The notes beneath the pieces were generated by a model. The model ran no database searches and had not been told where the DNA came from. It saw only the letters and a list, made by a program, of their open reading frames with translations. Below, in pieces: positions 27-54,135 of a stretch of 64,000 bases of DNA; position 1 is the first letter of the stretch; every line of letters begins with the position of its first letter. The stretch lies in assembly GCA_029261755.1 (NCBI GenBank), contig JAJDAS010000247.1, forward strand, positions 1,616 through 65,615. Reading direction: 5' to 3'. The DNA comes from Nitrospinia bacterium (lineage in GTDB: Bacteria; Nitrospinota; Nitrospinia; JACRGO01). The translations under genes and the position numbers were made by a program.

Positions 27-64
27 TTTAACCGCGAATGGTCGCGAATTTGCGCGAATAAAAC
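27..64. repeat. Solo arm of the CGAAT-word periodic element (same word set as the inverted pair at 7004-7123)
   Basis: The sequence is TTTAACCGCGAATGGTCGCGAATTTGCGCGAATAAAA. CGAAT recurs at 35, 45 and 55, an exact 10-nt period. It is near-identical to the left arm at 7004-7039. No complementary arm is seen in the next ~150 nt. Confidence 0.7.
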
Positions 65-437: not shown

Positions 438-3266
438 ATGCAGCTCAATGAAATCATCATCAAAGGGGCCAAGGAGCACAATCTGAAGAACATCAGTCTC
501 AGGCTCCCAAGAAATAAACTCATCGTTATTACCGGCCTTAGCGGTTCCGGTAAGTCTTCCCTGGCCTTCGATACCATCTACGCAGAAGGACAACGAAGGT
601 ATGTGGAATCGCTCTCCGCCTACGCCAGGCAGTTCCTGGAGCAGATGGGAAAACCGGATGTGGAACAAATCGACGGCCTTTCCCCCGCCATCTCCATCGA
701 ACAAAAAACCACCAGCAAGAATCCCAGGTCCACAGTGGGAACCATCACGGAAGTCTACGACTACCTCCGACTCCTATACGCCCGTGCAGGCCGGGTGCAT
801 TGCTACCAATGCGGCAAGGAAATCTCCTCCCAAACCGTGCAGCAGATTGTAGACCAGGTGGACTCCCTTTCAGCGGGTGCAAAAATCCAAATCCTCTCTC
901 CCGTCGTCCGTGGCAGAAAAGGCGAATACAAAAAGGTTTTGGATAGTTTTCGGCAAAAGGGGTTTGTGCGGGTCCGGGTGAACGGCACAATCCATGATCT
1001 TTCGGAACCCATAGAACTGGACAAAAACAAAAAGCACAACATTGAACTGGTGGTGGACCGTCTCGTCGTGAAAGAGGGGATCAAGAAAAGGATGAGCGAC
1101 TCGGTGGAGTTGGCGTTGAAACATTCCGAAGGTTTGGTGTCCATTCTCATGGAGGACGGTTCGGAAAATGTTTTTAGTGAAAAATTCGCGTGTATCGACT
1201 GCGGGGTGAGCTATCCCGAGCTGGCACCACGAATGTTCTCTTTCAATAGTCCCCATGGCGCCTGCCAGGAATGCGCCGGACTGGCTACAAAAAAAATTGT
1301 AGACCCGGGACTAGTGATTCCCGATGACTTTCTATCTTTAGAGGAAGGGGCCATCGCACCGTGGCGGCGAAAAACTTCGGTCTATTACCAGCAGGTGTTG
1401 GAGGGGCTCTCCCACCATTTCAAATTCGAATTAAAAACTCCCTTCAAAGACCTTAGCAAAAAGGTTCAAAAAACCATACTTTACGGCTCTGGGCAGGAAA
1501 CCATTCAGTTTTTTTATTTAAGGGACGGGAAACGCTATGAGTACCTTCGCAGCTTCGAGGGAGTTATTCCCAATTTGAAAAGAAAGCATCGTGAATCCGA
1601 TTCTCATTATGTCCGGGAAGAGATAGAGGAATTCATGAATATTCAGCCCTGCCAGGCGTGTAATGGGGCTCGGTTAAGAAAGGAGAGCCTCTCGGTAAAG
1701 ATCGGCGGAGAAAATATAATCGAGGTTACCCGCCTTTCAGTAAAACACGCCATGGCTTTTTTTCAAGGCATAAAGTTTTCCGTCCAGGAACAAAAAATTG
1801 TTTCTCGCATATTGAAAGAGATTGAAGAGCGCCTGGGTTTTTTGATAGATGTAGGGCTGGACTATCTGACGCTGGATCGGGCCTCCGGTACCTTGTCCGG
1901 CGGTGAAGGGCAAAGAATCCGCCTGGCCACACAGATCGGTTCCGCCCTGGTGGGGGTCCTTTATATTCTGGACGAGCCGAGTATAGGCCTGCACCAGAGA
2001 GATAACCAGAGGCTCCTGGCTACTTTGATTCGCCTTCGGGATCTTGGAAACACCGTCATTGTGGTGGAACACGATGCCGAAACCATTCTGGCGGCGGATC
2101 ACGTGGTGGATCTTGGTCCTGCTGCAGGGGTCCATGGAGGAACCGTGGTAGCGGAAGGCTCACCCAAAAAATTGCTGAAGCACCCCCATTCCATTACCGG
2201 GAAATATCTTTCCGGTCGATTACAAATCGAAACTCCCAAGGAAAGAAGGAAGGGAAACGACCTGTTTATCAAAATCAAGGAAGCCACCCAGAACAATTTG
2301 AAGGGAATCGATGCCAAGATACCCTTGGGCACCTTCACCTGCGTCACCGGGGTATCGGGTTCCGGGAAAAGCACCCTAGTGGTGGACATCCTCTATAAAG
2401 CCCTTTTTCAAAAGATTTGGAAGAGCAGGGAGAAACCCGGCTCCCATCTTGGAATTGCCGGGGTGGAATATTTGGACAAGGTCATCGATATCGACCAGTC
2501 ACCCATCGGCAGAACTCCCAGGTCCAATCCCGCCACCTATACGGGGCTGTTCACCACCGTGCGGGATATTTTCGCCCAGGTTCCCGAGGCCAGAAAGAGA
2601 GGTTATAAGGTGGGCCGATTCAGTTTCAATGTAAAAGGGGGACGCTGTGAAGCTTGTGCGGGTGACGGCACCATCAAGATTGAAATGCACTTTCTCCCCG
2701 ATGTTTATGTCACTTGCGAAATCTGCAAAGGGAAAAGGTTCAACAGGGAAACCCTGGATGTTCATTATAAAGGGAAAAACATCGCGGAGGTCCTGGATAT
2801 GACCGCCGAGGAGGCGGTCCTCTTCTTCGCCAACATTCCGGCGATCAAAGATAAGTTGAGCATTATCAATGATGTGGGGTTGTCCTATATCAGGCTGGGA
2901 CAATCCGCCACCACCCTGTCAGGCGGAGAAGCCCAGCGGGTAAAGCTGGCCAAGGAGCTGAGTAAACGGAGCACGGGAAGGACCCTCTATATCCTGGATG
3001 AACCCACCACCGGATTGCACTTCGCCGATATTGCCCATCTTTTGGAGGTGCTGAATCGGCTTACGGACGCAGGAAATACCATTGTGGTTATCGAGCATAA
3101 TCTAGATATTATCAAATCGGCGGACTACATCATCGATCTCGGACCGGAGGGCGGAGACAGCGGTGGAAATATAGTGGCGGAAGGGACCCCGGAAGAGGTT
3201 GCCGCTAATAAATCTTCTTATACCGGACAGTTTTTGAAGAAGGCATTAAAGGATAGTGACAAGTGA
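438..3266 (+). CDS. uvrA: Excinuclease ABC subunit A (UvrA)
   Basis: 942-aa ORF with two ABC ATPase modules: Walker [24 protein letters not shown] and a second GVSGSGKST, plus two LSGGE signatures. Cys clusters of the UvrA zinc modules are present (CIDCG..., CEACAGDG...CEICKGKR). Length is typical of UvrA. Confidence 0.97.
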
Positions 3267-3307
3267 CGAGTAACGAGTGACAAGAAAAACCTGGTGGAAG
3301 GGAGATT

Positions 3308-3347
3308 CAAGTTTCACTTTTGCTCTAACATTGAAAAGTGAAACTTG
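3308..3347 (+). terminator. Perfect 14-bp-stem hairpin downstream of uvrA (possible terminator, no U-tract)
   Basis: CAAGTTTCACTTTT - 11-nt loop - (G)AAAAGTGAAACTTG lies 42 nt after the uvrA stop. It is followed by GATTCACT rather than a T-run, so intrinsic termination is uncertain. Confidence 0.35.
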
Positions 3348-3366
3348 GATTCACTGCCTATTGCTT

Positions 3367-3520
3367 CTCAAAAAACACCAAAAGTGAGCGACAACTGCAT
3401 TTGTGCTGAATCTATTAAAGTCTATCGCATTTGTTGCTCAAAAAACACCAAAAGTGAGTGACAACCGCATTTGTGCTGAATCTATTAAGGTCTATCGCAT
3501 TTGTTGCTCAAAAAAACAAA
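3367..3520. repeat. Tandem direct repeat, 70-bp unit, about 2.2 copies, upstream of the fic gene
   Basis: The unit CTCAAAAAACACCAAAAGTGAG(C/T)GACAAC(T/C)GCATTTGTGCTGAATCTATTAA(A/G)GTCTATCGCATTTGTTG starts at 3367 and again at 3437, with 3 mismatches in 70. A partial third copy starts at 3507. Each unit contains two GCATTTGT(T)GCT boxes. Confidence 0.85.
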
Positions 3521-3592: not shown

Positions 3593-4714
3593 ATGGAGCT
3601 CAATTTAGAAAATGCTGTCAACTATCATTACGATAAATTTCCACCAGGTAGTCTTGATTATGGGCGATTTGTTGGGCCTTTAGTAAAAGCAACTGATGCA
3701 GTGGCACGTTACGACCAAATGTTAAAAAATATGCACAACAGCGAAATACTGTTGGCTCCTCTGCGTAACCAGGAAGCTGTTGTATCCTCAAGGATGGAAG
3801 GTACGGTTAGTACCATGGATGAAATTCTTAAGTATGAGGCAGATCATGATGCTGAAGCGGGAAACGCTACAAACGTAAGATCAGATGTTATCGAAACTAT
3901 CCTTTATCAGAGGGCATTGAAAGCCACGCAACGAGCGATGGAAGAAGGTTATCCATTGTCTCAATCGCTGATTAAAGGAATCCACCAGCGGTTGCTGTCT
4001 TTTGGGCGTGGCGCTTCAAAATCGCCAGGTAAGTATAAAAATGAACAAAACTACCTAGCTGATAAGTTGAGAAATAATATATTATTCATTCCAGTTAGTC
4101 CTGAAAAACTACAGGAAGGATTGGACAAGCTCTTTCAATATATAGAACAAAGCACACACCCAACGTTGATTAAAATAGGTATCACCCATATTGAGTTTGA
4201 AGCATTGCACCCATTTAAAGATGGTAATGGGCGTATTGGGCGTATGTTAATTACATTGATGCTATGGGCTTCAGGAGCTATATCTGCGCCTCATTTCTAC
4301 ATAAGCGGGTACTTGGAAGAGAATAAAGATCTTTATATAAACACAATGAGAAATGTGTCCGAGCATGGTGATTGGGAAAGTTGGTGCATTTTTTTTCTGA
4401 AAGCTATTGAGCAGCAGGCTATTAGAAATCTTACTATTGCAGAGAATATAAGTAACCTATATGAAGAGATGAAAATAGTGTTTTCAGATACTCTATCTTC
4501 TAAGTGGAGTGTTAACGCATTGGATTTTGTGTTCACAAATCCAGTGTTTAGAAACAACAAATTTACAACAAAAAGTGGTATACCTACGGCGAGTGCTGCA
4601 AGATTTACAAGGGTGCTCCTGGAGAAAAATCTGATCGCTACATTGGAAGAAGCATCGGGCAGAAGACCGGCATTATATTCTTTTGAGCCATTAATGGAAC
4701 TTGTTAGAGTTTAG
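3593..4714 (+). CDS. Fic family protein (AMPylase-type), class II with an N-terminal inhibitory helix
   Basis: 373-aa ORF with the canonical Fic motif HPFKDGNGRIGR (nt 4208-4243). An upstream S-x3-E-G inhibitory motif is present (SSRMEG, nt 3785-3802). RBS AAGGAA lies about 7 nt before the ATG. Composition is visibly AT-richer than the flanking genes. Confidence 0.9.
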   Translation: MELNLENAVNYHYDKFPPGSLDYGRFVGPLVKATDAVARYDQMLKNMHNSEILLAPLRNQEAVVSSRMEGTVSTMDEILKYEADHDAEAGNATNVRSDVIETILYQRALKATQRAMEEGYPLSQSLIKGIHQRLLSFGRGASKSPGKYKNEQNYLADKLRNNILFIPVSPEKLQEGLDKLFQYIEQSTHPTLIKIGITHIEFEALHPFKDGNGRIGRMLITLMLWASGAISAPHFYISGYLEENKDLYINTMRNVSEHGDWESWCIFFLKAIEQQAIRNLTIAENISNLYEEMKIVFSDTLSSKWSVNALDFVFTNPVFRNNKFTTKSGIPTASAARFTRVLLEKNLIATLEEASGRRPALYSFEPLMELVRV

Positions 4715-4876
4715 GCACTCTTACGGTCCACATGGACAAAAAATTAAAGGAAAGATTTCTTTAGCCACTAAGTACACTAAGTTTCGCTAAGTCTATTTCT
4801 TAGTGTTTCTTCGAGAATCTTTGCGGCCAAAATAAAAATCGAATGGTTGGAGGACCGTGAAGAGCAGAAGGGAAGG

Positions 4877-5258: not shown

Positions 5259-6938
5259 GTGGGTCAAGCTTTTTTGCAGCGTCAAAATATTTTGAAAAAG
5301 AAAAAACTGCTACTATTGCAACCTCCCATCCAGGATTTTTATCAAACCCCTATTCGCTTGCAGCCCGTTGGGCTTGGCTATCTGAAGGCCGCTATTCACA
5401 AGTACATGCCGGATGAAATGGAGGTGGTGGTCAAAGACTATCACCAAGGAGGAGGACGCAAAACCATCCCCTTACCCAAAGAGCTTTCTTATCTAAAAGA
5501 TTTTTACGCCTGGCCAGACCAAAGTCCCTTTTCCTCTTTTTACCACTATTACCATTATGGTGTTCCCTTTGACCTTCTGGCCGAGGATGTGGTCAAAGAA
5601 AAGCCGGATATTGTGGGGATTTCATCGCTTTTTTCTCCCTATTATCGCGAAGTTCTTCGATCGGCCGAGGAAATAAAAAAGCGTTTGAAAATTCCCATCA
5701 TTGTGGGAGGCAGCCACGTCTCCGCTATGCCCCTTTTCATGCTCCAGCAACCTGGTATCGATTTCATTATCCAGGCTGAAGGGGAAAGGCCCATGGTGGA
5801 GTTTTTGAGGGAATGGAAAAATGGCGGAAACTATGCCAAGGTACCCAACCTGGGCTACGAGGAAAACGGGAGGCACATTCTAAATAAGGTGGAAGACAAT
5901 TTCCCCATTGAGGAGCTTCCCTTTCCCGACCTTTCCGACCTCGCCCGGGACCGGTATCATCTGAAAAACCGTCCCCTTCATTTTTTAGTATCTTCCCGTG
6001 GATGTCCCCATCAATGTTCTTTTTGCTCTGTACATCTCACCTTCGGGACCGGTTACAGGAAGCGTTCCACTAGCAATGTGCTCCAGGAGATCAAAAAAAG
6101 ATATGAAGAAGGAGTTCGCGTCTTCGACTTTGAAGATGACGACTTTACTTGCAATGGGGAGGAGATCAAAGAGCTTTGCAAAAAGCTCATGGAGGCATTT
6201 CCAAAGGATGACATCGAACTCACCGCCATGAACGGGATCTCCTACTTCAGCCTGGATTCGGAGCTGTTAACGCTTATGAAAAAAGCCGGATTTCGGCACT
6301 TGAACCTGTCTCTGGTGAGTGTGGATGGCGACCTCCAGCAGAGGACCAAGCGTCCTCACTCCATTGATAAATACCTGGAAGTGGTGCGGGAAGCATGTGA
6401 ACTGAGATTCCAAGTGGTTTCCTATCAGATTTTGGGGCTCCCTCATGAACAGATTGATTCCATGATTCAGACCCTTGCTCTAAACTCCACACTTCCGGTC
6501 CTTTTGGGGGCCTCCATTTTTTATTTAACGCCAAACTCCCCAATAGCAAGGGATTTTCCCGAACCCAGTGAAGGAGAGGTTTTCAGAGCGCGACTCACAG
6601 CCATCTCCGTGGAGACGGAACATTTCAATAGGGAAGACCTCTATACTCTTTTTGTTACAGCCAGGATCATCAATTTTTTGAAAGGTTTGAAGTTTGAAGA
6701 AGATGAATTGCCATTCCGGGAGGTTCTGGACAGAACCCTTCGTGGGAAGGGAAGAATGGTGGTAGGTGCTGAGCTTTTAGAAAATTTTTTTGCAGAGCAA
6801 ACCCTTTATGCCTCCACCAAGAGTGGCTTTAAGGTTCTTCCCAGATTCAAAGCGGAACTCTTTTTTCGCGTCTGGACCCAACTGGACTTCATAAAAACTC
6901 AGGAAAATAAAAATATTGTCCTGGACAAAAGCTGGTGA
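5259..6938 (+). CDS. B12-binding-domain radical SAM protein
   Basis: 559-aa ORF with the radical SAM cluster motif CPHQCSFCSV (CxxxCxxC). The N-terminal region resembles a cobalamin-binding domain (LLLLQPP...GLGYLKA...IVGISS...IIVGGSH). The start codon is uncertain: GTG at 5259 or TTG at 5292. Confidence 0.85.
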   Translation: MGQAFLQRQNILKKKKLLLLQPPIQDFYQTPIRLQPVGLGYLKAAIHKYMPDEMEVVVKDYHQGGGRKTIPLPKELSYLKDFYAWPDQSPFSSFYHYYHYGVPFDLLAEDVVKEKPDIVGISSLFSPYYREVLRSAEEIKKRLKIPIIVGGSHVSAMPLFMLQQPGIDFIIQAEGERPMVEFLREWKNGGNYAKVPNLGYEENGRHILNKVEDNFPIEELPFPDLSDLARDRYHLKNRPLHFLVSSRGCPHQCSFCSVHLTFGTGYRKRSTSNVLQEIKKRYEEGVRVFDFEDDDFTCNGEEIKELCKKLMEAFPKDDIELTAMNGISYFSLDSELLTLMKKAGFRHLNLSLVSVDGDLQQRTKRPHSIDKYLEVVREACELRFQVVSYQILGLPHEQIDSMIQTLALNSTLPVLLGASIFYLTPNSPIARDFPEPSEGEVFRARLTAISVETEHFNREDLYTLFVTARIINFLKGLKFEEDELPFREVLDRTLRGKGRMVVGAELLENFFAEQTLYASTKSGFKVLPRFKAELFFRVWTQLDFIKTQENKNIVLDKSW

Positions 6939-7003
6939 AAAATAAGATAGTAGGATGGGCAGGCCGGGGAGGGGAAGGAGAGAAAGCTTTGCGATCAAAG
7001 ACA

Positions 7004-7123
7004 TTTAACCGCGAATGGCCACGAATGAACGCGAATAAAGAAAAAACAAGAAAAATAATCTATCTTGTACCTTTTGGTTCTCTGGTTTTATTCGCGTAAA
7101 TTCGCGGCCATTCGCGGTTAAAA
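7004..7123. repeat. Long inverted repeat built from CGAAT words at a 10-nt period (REP-like, terminator-like position)
   Basis: The left arm is TTTAACCGCGAATGGCCACGAATGAACGCGAATAAA (7004-7039). The right arm is TTTATTCGCGTAAATTCGCGGCCATTCGCGGTTAAA (7087-7123). They are separated by an A-rich spacer of about 47 nt. The element lies between the radical SAM stop and the murJ start. Confidence 0.85.
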
Positions 7124-7161
7124 AGTTTTATTAATTTCAAATATCTTTGGCTATATTTCAG

Positions 7162-8733
7162 ATGGCAAACTCGGAAGACAAAAAAATCATCAAAGCCGCC
7201 AGCACCATAGCGGGCGCCACGTTATTGAGCCGTGTGCTTGGATTTATCCGTGACATGATTATGGCCCGTTTTTTTGGCGCCACCGCTGCCGCCGATGCTT
7301 TTTACGTGGCTTACCGTATTCCCAATCTCTTCAGAGAACTTTTAGCCGAGGGCACCATGTCCGCCGCCTTTGTCCCCGTTTTCACCGAATACCTGGCCAC
7401 CAAGGAGAGGGAAGAGGCTAGGAAACTGGCCTCCGGCGTTTTTACCGCACTCCTCACTATTGCAACTTTATTTGTGGTCATCGGCATCTTCACAGCACCC
7501 TATTTGGTCCTGACCATCGCGTATGGTTTTAAATTTGATCCGGAAAAATTTAATACCACCGTCTACCTGACTCGTTTGATGTTCCCATTTCTGCTTTTTA
7601 TCTCCCTGTCAGCCTTGACCATGGGGATGCTGAACTCTTTGAGGCTATTTTTTGTCCCCGCCCTGGGTCCGGCCATTTTGAATGTATTCATCATTTCCAC
7701 CATCCTGATTTTGACTCCCGTGGTGGACCCTCCTGTATCTGCGGCGGCCTACGGGGTGCTCTTCGGAGGGGTATTCCCATTGTTGCTACAGGTCTATTTT
7801 TTGAAGCGGGAGGGAATGCTGTTTCGATTCAGTGCTTTTTGGACTCATCCCGGCGTGAAAAAAATCTTTAAATTGATGGGGCCGGTGGTGGCTGGTCTTT
7901 CGGTAACCCAGGTAAACTTGCTGATAAACACCATCCTGGCCTCCTTTCTGGCGGTGGGTAGCGTGAGCTTTCTTTATTACGGGATGCGTCTCATCCATTT
8001 TCCCCTGGGAATCCTGGGAGTTGCCATTTCCACGGCCATTCTTCCTTCCTTTGCTACCCTGGCGGCTAAAAAGGATTTCAAAGGTCTTAACGAGACCCTT
8101 TCTTTTGGATTGCGGATGGTCTTATTCATTACCATCCCGGCCATGATAGGGCTTATTTTTTTCAGGATTCCCATTGTAAATTTACTCTTCCAGCATGGGG
8201 AGTTTGATTATAACGCCACCCTTGGCACTTCGGGGGCGATCTTGTATTACGCGGTGGGGATATGGTCCTTCGCCTCCGTGCGAATCATTACCCAGGTCTT
8301 TTATTCCTTGCAGGATACCAAAACTCCCATGAAGACGGCGGCCCTCTCGGTGGCCTGCGGAACGGCGGCCAGCCTGGTGCTGATCCAGTTCATGGCCCAC
8401 AAAGGGCTAGCCCTTGCCACATCTTTAGCCTCCATGCTGAATCTTTCCATCTTGCTCTACCGGTACAATCAGCGAAATGGGATCAGTCTTAATGAGATTT
8501 TTAAGACGGCATTCTACTCCCTAGCGGCGGCTGTACCAATTGCTTTGGCAGGGATTTTTGTTTCCAGCCACTTTCCCTGGAATGATGACACCCAAGTATT
8601 ACTTAAAGCGGGGATCATTGCCTGTTCCGTCATCGGTTCTGTGGCCATTTATTTTTCCATTCATCATTTCATGAAAAGCCCGGAGCTGGAATTTTTTATG
8701 GAGCAGGTGAGGAAGAGGAAATCCACAGGATAG
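7162..8733 (+). CDS. murJ: Lipid II flippase MurJ (MviN)
   Basis: The N-terminus has the MurJ signature STIAGATLLSRVLGFIRDMIMARFFGAT..ADAFYVAYRIPNLFRELLAEGTMSAAFVPVF. There are about 14 hydrophobic segments. I prefer ATG 7162 over the track start 7147 (TTG). Confidence 0.92.
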   Translation: MANSEDKKIIKAASTIAGATLLSRVLGFIRDMIMARFFGATAAADAFYVAYRIPNLFRELLAEGTMSAAFVPVFTEYLATKEREEARKLASGVFTALLTIATLFVVIGIFTAPYLVLTIAYGFKFDPEKFNTTVYLTRLMFPFLLFISLSALTMGMLNSLRLFFVPALGPAILNVFIISTILILTPVVDPPVSAAAYGVLFGGVFPLLLQVYFLKREGMLFRFSAFWTHPGVKKIFKLMGPVVAGLSVTQVNLLINTILASFLAVGSVSFLYYGMRLIHFPLGILGVAISTAILPSFATLAAKKDFKGLNETLSFGLRMVLFITIPAMIGLIFFRIPIVNLLFQHGEFDYNATLGTSGAILYYAVGIWSFASVRIITQVFYSLQDTKTPMKTAALSVACGTAASLVLIQFMAHKGLALATSLASMLNLSILLYRYNQRNGISLNEIFKTAFYSLAAAVPIALAGIFVSSHFPWNDDTQVLLKAGIIACSVIGSVAIYFSIHHFMKSPELEFFMEQVRKRKSTG

Positions 8734-11446: not shown

Positions 11447-11631
11447 GGTTTAGAGTTCCACTAAAAAAGTACTGAAAAAATTTAACATCATCATCGAAAA
11501 AGGTAGTTTTTAAAAAAAAGATGTTGGAGCATCTTAGAAAGTAACGTTCCCTTCAAACCAACAAAATGAACCCTTTCTTCTTTCATGTTCAGTCTTTGAT
11601 ATTCGACATTCAATCTTTAACCTGCCTCGCC

Positions 11632-13173: not shown

Positions 13174-13548
13174 GAATGGAAAAATAACAAATAAATGGAG
13201 GAAAGACAAGTGAGGGGGGTTCTGGGTTTAGAGAAACCGGTATTCACGCTTATTTCCAACTCAGCCCTGAACCTTTGAACCGGGAATCTTGAACTCTCCT
13301 TTAAATTTCCATTTTTTAAATTTTTTCCTGTTATTCTGAGAAAATGGATTATATTAATGTAAAAGGCTTCAACAAGACTGTCTTTGATTGCAATAGTGGC
13401 AAATACTTAAATTTATTTATGGCCTTTCGAGGCTTGAGAAAATAAGAAAATTATTTCCTTTTTTATTTCTTTTCAAATTGTTACAATTTAACCTACTTGA
13501 GAATTATTTATTTATGAGACTGCCGCGCTTTCTTTACAAAGGAATTTC

Positions 13549-29724: not shown

Positions 29725-29812
29725 ATTTTAGATTTGTGATTTTAGATTTTTGATTGGTGGTAGGTTTTTTTAATGAAAATTCCTTCAATCTAAAATCAGC
29801 AATCTAAAATTT
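29725..29812. repeat. Inverted repeat built from GATT words at a 7-nt period
   Basis: The left arm is ATTTTAGATTTGTGATTTTAGATTTTTGATTG, with GATT at 29731, 29738, 29745 and 29752. The right arm is CAATCTAAAATCAGCAATCTAAAAT (29786-29810). About 22 of 24 positions are complementary. It lies directly after the pyrB stop. Confidence 0.75.
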
Positions 29813-44413: not shown

Positions 44414-44495
44414 TGTTGGAATACTGGAATACTGGAATAGTTGGGGAAATTCCATTATCAACATTCCAATTTTCCATCATTCCGGTATTCCAATG
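44414..44495. repeat. Inverted repeat built from GGAAT words at an 8-nt period
   Basis: The left arm is TGTTGGAATACTGGAATACTGGAATAGTTGG, with GGAAT at 44418, 44426 and 44434. The right arm is AACATTCCAATTTTCCATCATTCCGGTATTCCAATG. It lies between the PilZ gene and the first MCP gene. Confidence 0.7.
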
Positions 44496-53119: not shown

Positions 53120-53187
53120 TGGGGTTGCCGCTAAGAACATAACCAAGACGGTCCTCATGAACCATACAAATAGTAAAAACAATAGTT

Positions 53188-53432
53188 GCCCTGTAGGGGC
53201 TATATACTTCAGCCCAGGGTTAAAATACTCCGCTTTTTGAGTATTGCAACCCTGGGTTCCTTTTCATCATTTTTTTACCCTGCAGGGGTAACATAAAAGC
53301 GAGCAACCTTAGGGGTTTGTTTTATGCAACCCCTTCAGGGTTGAAATTTTGTTGTTTTTTAATCCCAGGGTTGCGGCATGTAACAAACACATGCCTTAAC
53401 CCTGGGCTAGCGTATGGTACCCCTTCAGGGTA
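53188..53432. repeat. Two inverted copies of a ~115-nt three-hairpin element (possible structured RNA or BIME-like cluster)
   Basis: Copy 1 consists of short hairpin GCCC-TGTAG-GGGC (53188-53200), long hairpin 53213-53256 and short hairpin TACCC-TGCAG-GGGTA (53276-53290). Copy 2 consists of CAACCC-CTTCA-GGGTTG (53327-53343), long hairpin 53364-53406 and TACCC-CTTCA-GGGTA (53418-53432). Both long hairpins share the outer stem CCCAGGGTT/AACCCTGGG. Their 7-bp inner stems differ but are each fully paired. Confidence 0.65.
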
Positions 53433-53516
53433 AAATTGAATGGTTTTTTTATTAAAACTTGCTGAACGGTTATAAATTAAAAAGAAAAAGCAATAAAAAA
53501 AAGGAGAAGTTTTAGC

Positions 53517-53921: not shown

Positions 53922-53985
53922 TCCCTATTTGAAGTGGCTAAGGCGTTCTAAAGCCTGAGTAGTTACCAAATATTGTCACTACTCG

Positions 53986-54135
53986 GGTTAACCGGTTCAA
54001 GGTTCCCGGTTGAAAGCCTTGCTCTCTGACAGCTGGCTCCATAGTGGCGAAGCCCTGTGGAGCCATGGTGTACGTTGGCTTCAAATCTTTTTTAACCTTG
54101 AACCGTGAACCTGGAACGTTGAACCTTAGCAGTTA
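53986..54135. repeat. Inverted repeat built from GGTT/AACC words at a 7-nt period
   Basis: The left arm is GGTTAACCGGTTCAAGGTTCCCGGTTGAAAGCC, with GGTT at 53986, 53994, 54001 and 54008. The right arm is TTTAACCTTGAACCGTGAACCTGGAACGTTGAACCTT, with AAC at 54104, 54111, 54118, 54125 and 54132. An inner 7-bp hairpin, GGCTCCA...TGGAGCC, lies at 54036-54064. Confidence 0.65.
54034..54048 (+). promoter_or_regulatory. Weaker sigma-54-like -24/-12 candidate upstream of the hybrid kinase gene
   Basis: TGGCTCCATAGTGGC has correct GG-N10-GC spacing, but the -12 box reads TGGC rather than TTGC. It lies about 120 nt upstream of ATG 54170. Confidence 0.25.

Follow-up and report, generated by a model that had tools for sequence, protein, structure and literature searches.

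The stretch of DNA under study, referred to below as the window, comprises 64,000 nucleotides of the genome of a Nitrospinia bacterium (assembly GCA_029261755.1, contig JAJDAS010000247.1, positions 1,616 to 65,615), and in four of its spacers it holds a gene-less palindrome whose arms are tandem arrays of a short word, one arm being the reverse complement of the other. An earlier note made from the letters of the window had pointed out this architecture, and inverted arms of 3-5 tandem words of 7-10 nt were indeed confirmed at 7004, 29725, 44416 and 53986. The first palindrome, of the CGCGAAT family (7004-7122), has 36-nt arms (7004-7039 and 7087-7122, 92% complementary) with three CGCGAAT words apiece at a period of 10, and the 47-nt loop between them is a sequence conserved in the family. 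The second, of the TTTAGAT family (29725-29810, period 7), begins 5 nt past the stop codon of an aspartate/ornithine carbamoyltransferase-family gene and has 24-nt arms (29725-29748 and 29787-29810) that are 92% complementary. A GGAAT-word palindrome with a period of 8 follows at 44416-44493; its 22-nt arms (44416-44437 and 44472-44493, 86%) consist of TGGAATAC in 2.9 copies of 100% identity. The fourth, of the GGTTCA family (53986-54135), is made of GGTTCNN at a period of 7 in 4.9 copies. It has a small hairpin, GGCTCCATAGTGGCGAAGCCCTGTGGAGCC (54035-54064), nested within its loop, where it forms an inner stem, and just outside it, at about 53959-53972, lies a GTAACTACTCAGG motif that corresponds to the outer end of the GGTTCA family. 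Neither the palindromes nor the nested hairpin are assigned to a strand. All four palindromes sit between co-directional genes, and the loops of the window elements measure 34-90 nt.

The whole 5.6-Mb assembly, in 653 contigs, was scanned for inverted repeats with arms of at least 18 nt, at least 80% complementarity and a span of at most 220 nt. Of 741 such repeats, 188 had an arm periodicity of at least 0.7, where shuffled arms predict 6.0, and 88 reached at least 0.8, against 0.4 expected. The periods among the 188 were 7 (89 repeats), 8 (48), 9 (39) and 10 (11). Intergenic DNA likewise contained strongly periodic 24-nt segments, 29 at lag 7 and 31 at lag 8, compared with none in shuffled sequence and 1-2 in coding DNA of the same total length. 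Since the periodicity is enriched genome-wide over both shuffled arms and coding controls, the architecture is real and lies far above chance. Although 83% of the genome is coding, 165 of the 188 periodic inverted repeats lie outside open reading frames (ORFs), and these elements explain much of the fragmentation of the assembly.

The earlier note had further held that each palindrome is built from a word specific to its locus, a view that fails for three of the four. Searched against the genome with BLAST, the elements at 7004, 29725 and 53986 match 94, 96 and 88 places, respectively, near full length and with 84-93% identity; the GGAAT element (44414) is alone in being near-unique as a whole, with 4 places. 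Arrays of the GGAAT word occur at 35 places, often abutting abundant GGAGT arrays, and the element at 44416-44493 is a word variant of the abundant TGGAGTA arrays. The sequence TTAACCGCGAAT occurs 48 times in the genome against 0.8 expected, and the pattern CGCGAAT-N3-CGCGAAT is found 150 times in this genome, a single time in its sole congener and not at all in 29 further genomes of the class, with no occurrence of the reversed control pattern. The copies of a family have more in common than their arms. The consensus of the CGCGAAT family, drawn from 28 copies, extends through the 47-nt loop and some 30 nt into either flank, a consensus with loop and flanks was obtained for 8 families, and the loop of the TTTAGAT element, GGTGGTAGGTTTTTTT..ATTCC, is common to the GATTGAT family. 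When the 188 periodic inverted repeats were clustered, 166 fell together with other members of the set, and dozens of word families of one common design are present in the genome, in its genus and in related families. The judgement that this is not a single family of repetitive extragenic palindromic (REP) sequences or of MITEs (miniature inverted-repeat transposable elements) stood up well, since the dozens of families share the architecture and not the sequence.

Because each word marks a dispersed family with conserved loop and flanks, the elements have spread as units and were not built locally. The origin by local slippage and inversion that had been proposed for them survives in one part: slippage acts on the arrays, as seen from blocks of 3-5 identical units and from a word number that varies between copies and between arms by whole units, while the elements as such are not local products. 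Long arrays elsewhere in the genome (C67:5084, C649:4528, C123:13649) consist of blocks of 3-5 identical 8-mers, such as ggaatgtt x4 followed by ggagtgtt x5, or ggaacatt x3, ggaataat x3 and ggaatgat x3, and such blocks clearly bear the mark of units having been duplicated locally.

Two small protein families are encoded between arms of this kind. The first is PF05635, an Avd-like four-helix bundle annotated as "23S rRNA IVS protein" (IVS, intervening sequence), with 13 genes above the cut-off in this genome. When their flanks were read directly, 11-12 of the 13 were found between inverted word arrays, each with a word of its own (GGCACAAA, AGTAGGS, TCAGCNN, GAAACTN, TGGAGTAN, CGGAATNN, CATTGARN, GATTGAT and AACATCG among them). 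By an automated criterion, flanking periodic inverted repeats are present at 8 of 11 testable PF05635 genes, whereas among 990 other genes with products of 90-170 aa they are present at 7 (Fisher 4e-14), and several of the 7 exceptions are genes of the second family, GxxExxY. The flanking words are 6-8 nt long at PF05635 genes and 8-10 nt long at GxxExxY genes. As to the families represented in the window or sharing a loop with them, the PF05635 gene at C126:331 lies between TGGAGTA arrays, the one at C416:413 is flanked by GTAACTACTCAGGTG, the outer inverted repeat of the GGTTCA family with its GTAACTACTCAGG outer motif, and the GATTGAT family has one PF05635-bearing copy, at C378:9513. A direct BLAST comparison of the window elements with the flanks of the cargo genes gave short matches only.

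The one PF05635 protein that was queried matches PDB entries 2GSC (XCC0516 of Xanthomonas campestris) and 2RLD, with five chains each, and the family resembles Avd, the accessory protein of diversity-generating retroelements (PMC10053308). No reverse transcriptase was noticed in the PF05635 flanks that were read, which were not searched specifically for one. The association extends to three other families of the class, in which 17 of 22 sampled PF05635 genes have inverted word arrays. Across 35 PF05635 genes, protein identity and shared flank 7-mers showed no overall correlation because the background is noisy; only the pairs of at least 70% identity clearly share words. They do so even between host families whose MurJ proteins are just 45% identical, which suggests that the cassette of gene and arms moves as a unit.

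The second cargo family, GxxExxY (TIGR04256, E 6.6e-45; PF13366), has 10 genes in the genome, and 9 of them are adjoined by arrays of 8-10-nt words (CGCAGAG, CACGGAT, CACGAAA, ACAGGAT, CGCGAAG, CAGGAAG). The motif G..E..Y, D67 and (E/D)xK79 are invariant in the five sequences compared. An AlphaFold model of the protein, with a predicted local distance difference test score (pLDDT) of 92.9, has PD-(D/E)xK nucleases as its top structural matches, all of them weak (E at least 2.6e-3, template modelling score about 0.47); they include the lambda-exonuclease type, Cas4, a homing endonuclease and the R2 endonuclease domain. A sequence search against the PDB gave no match, and a published list counts PF13366 among the PD-(D/E)xK families whose function is unknown (PMC3424549).

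The connection between this family and the palindrome at 7004 comes from metagenomes. A scan for three CGCGAAT words at 10-nt phase returned at least 120 contigs, of which 80 loci (418 kb in all, GC 0.34-0.71) were analysed. All three GxxExxY genes in these 418 kb lie at the arrays, and two of them are enclosed by inverted CGCGAAT arms: at L221 the arms span 4037-4563 and the ORF 4083-4532, and at L223 the arms span 2806-3363 and the ORF 2864-3310. The arms at both loci keep the same 10-nt phase as the 7004 element, on contigs unrelated to this genome, and 13 metagenome loci carry gene-less palindromes. Because metagenome CGCGAAT arms enclose GxxExxY genes, 7004-7122 is best read as a gene-less cassette of the GxxExxY type, from which it would be descended. 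The earlier note had also considered a site for a protein that reads the repeats. With two small protein families encoded between such arms, candidates for this role are at hand; that they act on the arms is something we infer.

How a palindrome with a gene could turn into one without is best seen in the AACATCG family. Two of its cassettes, which occupy the same contig at a distance of 8.8 kb, show about 95% identity all the way from the inner left arm, across the ORF, to the right arm; outside the arms they are unrelated, and the homology stops exactly there. One of the two has lost 87 nt in frame, between GCGGA(G/A)TCGC direct repeats, and the loop of the gene-less AACATCG family is collinear with the ribosome-binding region and the 3' tail of the gene-bearing copy. 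The AACATCG copies thus form a series from intact through partly deleted to gene-less.

The repeats are common in the sole congener (MurJ 69% identical), where a 373-kb sample held 21 periodic inverted repeats, that is, 56 per Mb compared with 34 per Mb here. Some of its words are the same and some are different (GTCATTG and GACTAAAGT, for example), and the congener spacer orthologous to the one behind the carbamoyltransferase gene holds different elements. Further out, PF05635-positive genomes of families f2, f4 and f6 gave 16 periodic inverted repeats in 312 kb, compared with none in 400 kb of four complete PF05635-negative genomes of families f5 and f7. Arrays of the CACGAATT type are present at low copy number in two further families (MurJ about 45% identical), where they form AACCAC...GTGGTT palindromes between a stop codon and the next start. 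A MurJ-based search for related loci gave distant relatives only, at about 41% identity and with no useful synteny.

We consider it probable that the periodic palindromes are MITE-like, gene-less derivatives of small selfish hairpin cassettes, of which there would be two kinds. In its full form a cassette would open with 2-6 short words in tandem, continue with a small gene and close with the same array inverted; one kind would carry a PF05635 gene with 6-8-nt words, and the other a GxxExxY gene (TIGR04256/PF13366, with the PD-(D/E)xK nuclease fold) with 8-10-nt words. Loss of the ORF, for instance by deletion between short direct repeats, would leave the palindrome, whose loop would be the junction of the 5' and 3' untranslated parts of the gene. 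The gene-less forms would greatly outnumber the gene-bearing ones and would fill intergenic spacers in either orientation. Replication slippage would meanwhile alter the word number and homogenise word variants, and for this reason different words could come to sit on related backbones. The elements have the usual features of MITEs, namely terminal inverted repeats, small size, no coding capacity and a high copy number. They differ in the autonomous partner: a search of long-range arm pairs for a repeated, transposase-like class of ORF returned ordinary neighbour genes only, and the partners that were found encode PF05635 or GxxExxY proteins. The derivation presumably runs from the gene-bearing to the gene-less form, and the four elements of the window would themselves descend from cargo cassettes.

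A number of observations weigh against this reading. The fragmented assembly of 653 contigs contains no gene-bearing copy of the CGCGAAT family, nor of the CACGAATT and TTTAGAT families, so that the link of these three to a cargo gene is drawn through 2-3 metagenome contigs, sister families that share a loop, and the similarity of words. Gene-bearing copies are few in general, 23 against several hundred gene-less ones. Several GxxExxY genes (C382, C164, C372) have a complete palindrome on either side, or a solo arm on one side and a complete palindrome on the other, an arrangement that the simple loop model does not predict. PF05635 is not known to have a catalytic activity, and no transposase was found in the cassettes. 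Neither a target-site duplication nor a pair of empty and filled sites was established; the TTAA-like ends belong to the palindrome and are hence ambiguous, so that a target-site duplication is not definable. The comparison with related genomes carries its own reservations: the sampling of relatives was biased to contigs with cargo genes, the genomes are non-independent, and one of the four "negative" genomes, G030, carries two GxxExxY genes, for which reason the co-occurrence is limited to PF05635. Finally, matters could have run in the opposite direction, with small genes homing into palindromes that were already there.

This last thought can be developed into an explanation of its own, in which the gene-less palindromes are primary and represent empty sites, while the selfish genes, PF05635 and GxxExxY, are of separate origin, the nuclease being a homing endonuclease that inserts in or beside the palindromes. 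We regard it as unlikely, and it is because of the GxxExxY genes just mentioned, set between complete palindromes or between one such palindrome and a solo arm, that it keeps a place in the discussion. It would suit the fold matches to a PD-(D/E)xK homing endonuclease and to the R2 endonuclease domain, weak as they all are, and the excess of gene-less over gene-bearing copies by more than 10 to 1. The in-frame internal deletion, on the other hand, shows the decay of an ORF inside a cassette; the collinearity of the gene-less AACATCG loop with the untranslated ends of the gene-bearing copy fits either direction. PF05635, moreover, is not a nuclease, and the spread of the gene-less palindromes themselves would be left unexplained.

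A less probable explanation is that the elements are functional structures selected in place, as terminators, mRNA stabilisers or processing sites, and that they owe their architecture to selection and not to common descent. The stems are certainly stable as predicted, the RNA folds of the four window elements ranging from -25 to -60 kcal/mol (z -3.9 to -10.9), with 7004-7122 at the extreme of -60 kcal/mol and z -10.9. The genomic position could be taken in the same sense. Elements lie nearer to stops than to starts, with a median distance of 40 nt to the adjacent stop codon and 74 nt to the called start; the earlier statement that most sit just after stop codons was right as to this tendency and too strong as to distance, for 56 of 147 are within 20 nt. 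They fall in co-directional spacers 101 times, in convergent ones 23 times and in divergent ones 15 times, so that divergent spacers hold 11% of the elements with 24% of the spacer length, and the low-copy relatives in family f2 are placed between a stop and the next start. Tolerated selfish repeats, however, typically show the same depletion in divergent spacers.

The loops and flanks are harder to reconcile with selection in place, because their conservation within families means that the copies of a family share descent. Arm-to-arm covariation within elements showed no excess over shuffled partners in five of six families; since the arms of an element match one another no better than they match the arms of other copies, compensatory evolution at individual loci is absent. 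The orthologous spacer of the congener carries different elements. As for terminators, 7004-7122 was ruled out as a canonical intrinsic one, having a 47-nt loop and no T-run, and a terminator scan of 6900-7200, the 7004 locus only, found no terminator-like site. Rfam recognised just two tRNAs at gathering score in the window and no family for the palindromes, and at two related composite-element loci, one in this genome and one in the congener, it gave sub-threshold miRNA-hairpin look-alikes only. A secondary role of the elements as RNase III or processing sites, or as stabilisers of transcript ends, is nonetheless plausible, since elements that are transcribed would form very stable stems.

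A close published parallel in architecture leads to a third explanation. In Geobacter metallireducens, class 1-3 sites are intergenic multicopy pairs of 3-5 tandem 7-9-nt repeats on opposite strands, in several evolutionarily related classes that are absent from a sister species (PMC2700814, Aklujkar et al. 2009). The likeness in the paired opposite-strand repeats, and in the presence of several related classes within one genome, is obvious. The Geobacter sites were read as binding sites of IHF (integration host factor), HU or a regulator, with no cargo gene reported, whereas the arrays here are tied to PF05635 and GxxExxY. Transferred to this genome, the elements would be arrays of binding sites for a global regulator or an IHF/HU-like nucleoid protein, a proposal with the same paired tandem repeats as its model (PMC2700814) and with 9-10-nt periods that fit one helical turn. 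We hold it to be very improbable. Dozens of words would demand dozens of regulators, the commonest periods are 7 and 8 nt, whole elements are copied with their loops included, orientation and gene neighbourhood lack any regulon-like pattern, and the nearest encoded partners are the cassette-borne proteins.

That the palindromes are REP doublets of the REPIN type mobilised by a REP-associated tyrosine transposase (RAYT) can practically be dismissed. Y1-transposase genes do exist in the genome (14 PF01797 matches), and REPINs, too, are doublets in inverted order with a length of about 100 nt. A REP, however, is palindromic in itself, which the arms here are not; the three short Y1 genes that are intact (C249, C442, C610) are flanked by different, non-periodic palindromes (CCCCGGAGGGG / CCCAGGGT..ACCCTGGG) of the family found at window 53186-53433; and no periodic array flanks these genes as REPs would a RAYT, the only arrays nearby being two isolated ones 0.5-0.9 kb downstream of two of them.

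The reading as gene-less derivatives of cassettes also gives these elements a place among repeats known from other bacteria. Tandem-word intergenic hairpins have been reported since 1990, in cyanobacteria, Xanthomonas and Geobacter, and were given unrelated, untested functions such as G-quadruplexes, regulator sites and phase variation. Heterocystous cyanobacteria reportedly have STRR (short tandemly repeated repetitive) elements, families of tandem heptanucleotides dispersed in intergenic DNA, which are said to lengthen a helix of the RNase P RNA gene. With 89 period-7 inverted arrays, the present genome also has tandem heptanucleotides dispersed through it, in other words and in another host lineage than the published STRR; 8-10-nt periods, systematic inverted pairing and the link to cargo come in addition. 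With regard to protein, the nearest relatives are the 23S rRNA intervening sequences with an S23p/PF05635 ORF, and Avd. The protein family is the same, and a long stem with a small ORF in the loop is common to the intervening sequences and the cassettes; the cassettes here, however, lie between protein-coding genes and not within rRNA, and tandem-word stems are absent from the published description of the intervening sequences in the literature searched.

MITEs and the elements of the REP, BIME (bacterial interspersed mosaic element) and REPIN kind are similar to those described here in being small, non-coding, palindromic, high-copy and intergenic, in outnumbering their coding relatives and, in the case of BIMEs, in forming mosaics with other modules. 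They differ in that the coding relative here has no recognised transposase, the RAYT genes of this genome pair with other palindromes, and the arms are tandem sub-repeats. The nearest analogue for arms of the latter type would be the eukaryotic foldback transposons. In Xanthomonas campestris and X. citri, arrays of the heptamer GGGAATC form 70-75 convergent inverted pairs; most are intergenic, 16% falling between convergent genes and 7-8% between divergent ones (PMC4692102, Rehm et al. 2015). The placement and the inverted pairing are much like those seen here, while the Xanthomonas arrays have one G-rich word, studied for G-quadruplexes, and the present genome has dozens of words, the majority of which are not rich in G. 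Among solved structures, 2GSC is the closest to the PF05635 cargo; it is XCC0516 of X. campestris, a species known for its convergent GGGAATC arrays. TAACTGA direct repeats, known from marine Beggiatoaceae, cyanobacteria and Bacteroidetes, have a patchy distribution that suggests horizontal spread (PMC4679880, MacGregor 2015); they are comparable in being short intergenic heptamer arrays of patchy phylogeny. They consist, however, of one word, repeated directly just upstream of start codons with one inverted case, whereas here there are inverted pairs, many words and no preference for start codons.

The literature that was searched holds no paper tying PF05635 or GxxExxY genes to tandem-word arms. 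Because gene-bearing and gene-less forms of two cargo types exist side by side in this genome, a single, testable origin is suggested for tandem-word hairpins, as decay products of cassettes with an Avd-like protein or a minimal nuclease. Should this be true, it would provide a biological context for PF05635/TIGR02436 and TIGR04256, both of them very large protein families whose function is unknown, it would explain the patchiness and fast change of such repeats, and it would caution annotators against calling them regulons or terminators. One may tentatively go a step further. The PF05635 and GxxExxY cassettes could form a distinct class of transposase-less mobile elements, in which the protein reads the words of its own arms and copying or homing proceeds via a hairpin or cruciform. 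The reader would be an Avd-like pentamer or a minimal PD-(D/E)xK nuclease, the type of protein would set the word period (6-8 or 8-10 nt), and the STRR-type, GGGAATC-type and Geobacter class 1-3 repeats of many phyla would be gene-less progeny.

The palindromes with 9-10-nt words have a further level of organisation. They are part of a mosaic backbone in which two modules, L and R, enclose a slot that holds varied palindromes and is empty in one copy. In the window, the R module AATTTCAAATATCTTTGG is found at 7133-7150 on the + strand, as a dispersed backbone module that follows many 9-10-nt-word palindromes. R (AAATTTCAAATATCTTTGG) has 222 copies in the genome at up to 3 mismatches; with the limit set at 1 mismatch, this genome has 124, the congener 75 and relatives of the class at most 7. 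Genes often start 10-60 nt away from AAATTTCAAATATCTTTGG, and a host promoter was considered for this reason and dropped: the orientation to neighbouring genes is near-random (59 same, 49 opposite), and the module is a genus-specific dispersed repeat. L (TAGATACTTAC..CTGAGAATT..TCTCTCACAATT) has 111 copies. At three congener loci (L039, L042, L053) it forms 35-nt inverted arms around R, and L is there a palindromic element of its own, as these arms surround R.

Elements are also nested within one another's loops. The small hairpin module GGCTCCATAGTGGCG..CTGTGGAGCC at window 54035-54064 is present in the loop of an AACATCG element as well (C23:3993-4227), so two different word families carry it in their loops; T-runs border the copy at C23 at either end and may represent a target duplication.

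The window contains a few more arrays, which the earlier note had partly listed as decayed or solo. A solo CGCGAAT arm at 27-64 (+ strand), whose partner arm has decayed, matches 67 places in the genome by BLAST, and a solo right-arm remnant of the AACATCG family (..GTTCGATGTTAAATC) at 18138-18170 matches 17. A short palindrome of CACTAAG/CGCTAAG words with a period of 9-10, at 4753-4822, matches 4 places, and by eye it appears to resemble the arms of the GxxExxY cassette at C499:3302. A decayed period-7 array at 11588-11628 and a weak GAAC-word array at 13267-13296 have themselves as their sole genome match, and the latter is possibly due to chance or to complete decay. None of the last four is assigned to a strand.

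Repeats of other types were met along the way. Of three IS110-family genes, two have CAGGAA-word palindromes within a few hundred bases of them (C135:17830-18330, C425:1605-2340), a placement reminiscent of ISGme8/9, whose distance to the class 1 sites of G. metallireducens is fixed; the link was given up, as the inspection of the three genes revealed no fixed junction. A non-periodic 30-nt inverted repeat, AAAAAGGGGTCAAATCCACTCTTGACTGCAT, flanks three unrelated small genes (C324:557-970, C218:2271-2729, C352:788-1216) that may belong to another type of cassette or repeat. A 70-nt unit in 2.1 copies of 96% identity occupies 3367-3515 of the window, between uvrA and the gene that follows. Downstream of tRNA-Asn, at 62553-62659, lies a 27-nt inverted repeat, TTAAGAGCATTTCTAAAAACTCACTTT, which resembles by eye the arms of an abundant, mostly non-periodic inverted-repeat cluster of 82 members (example arm GGGCACTTCCAAAAACTCCCTTT). 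The non-periodic palindromes at 53186-53433 (CCCAGGGT..ACCCTGGG and CCCTGTAGGGG) are of the same type as those that flank three short Y1-transposase (RAYT/IS200-like) genes (C249:1831, C442:4324, C610:2082), and they look like a separate REP/REPIN-RAYT system in the same genome.

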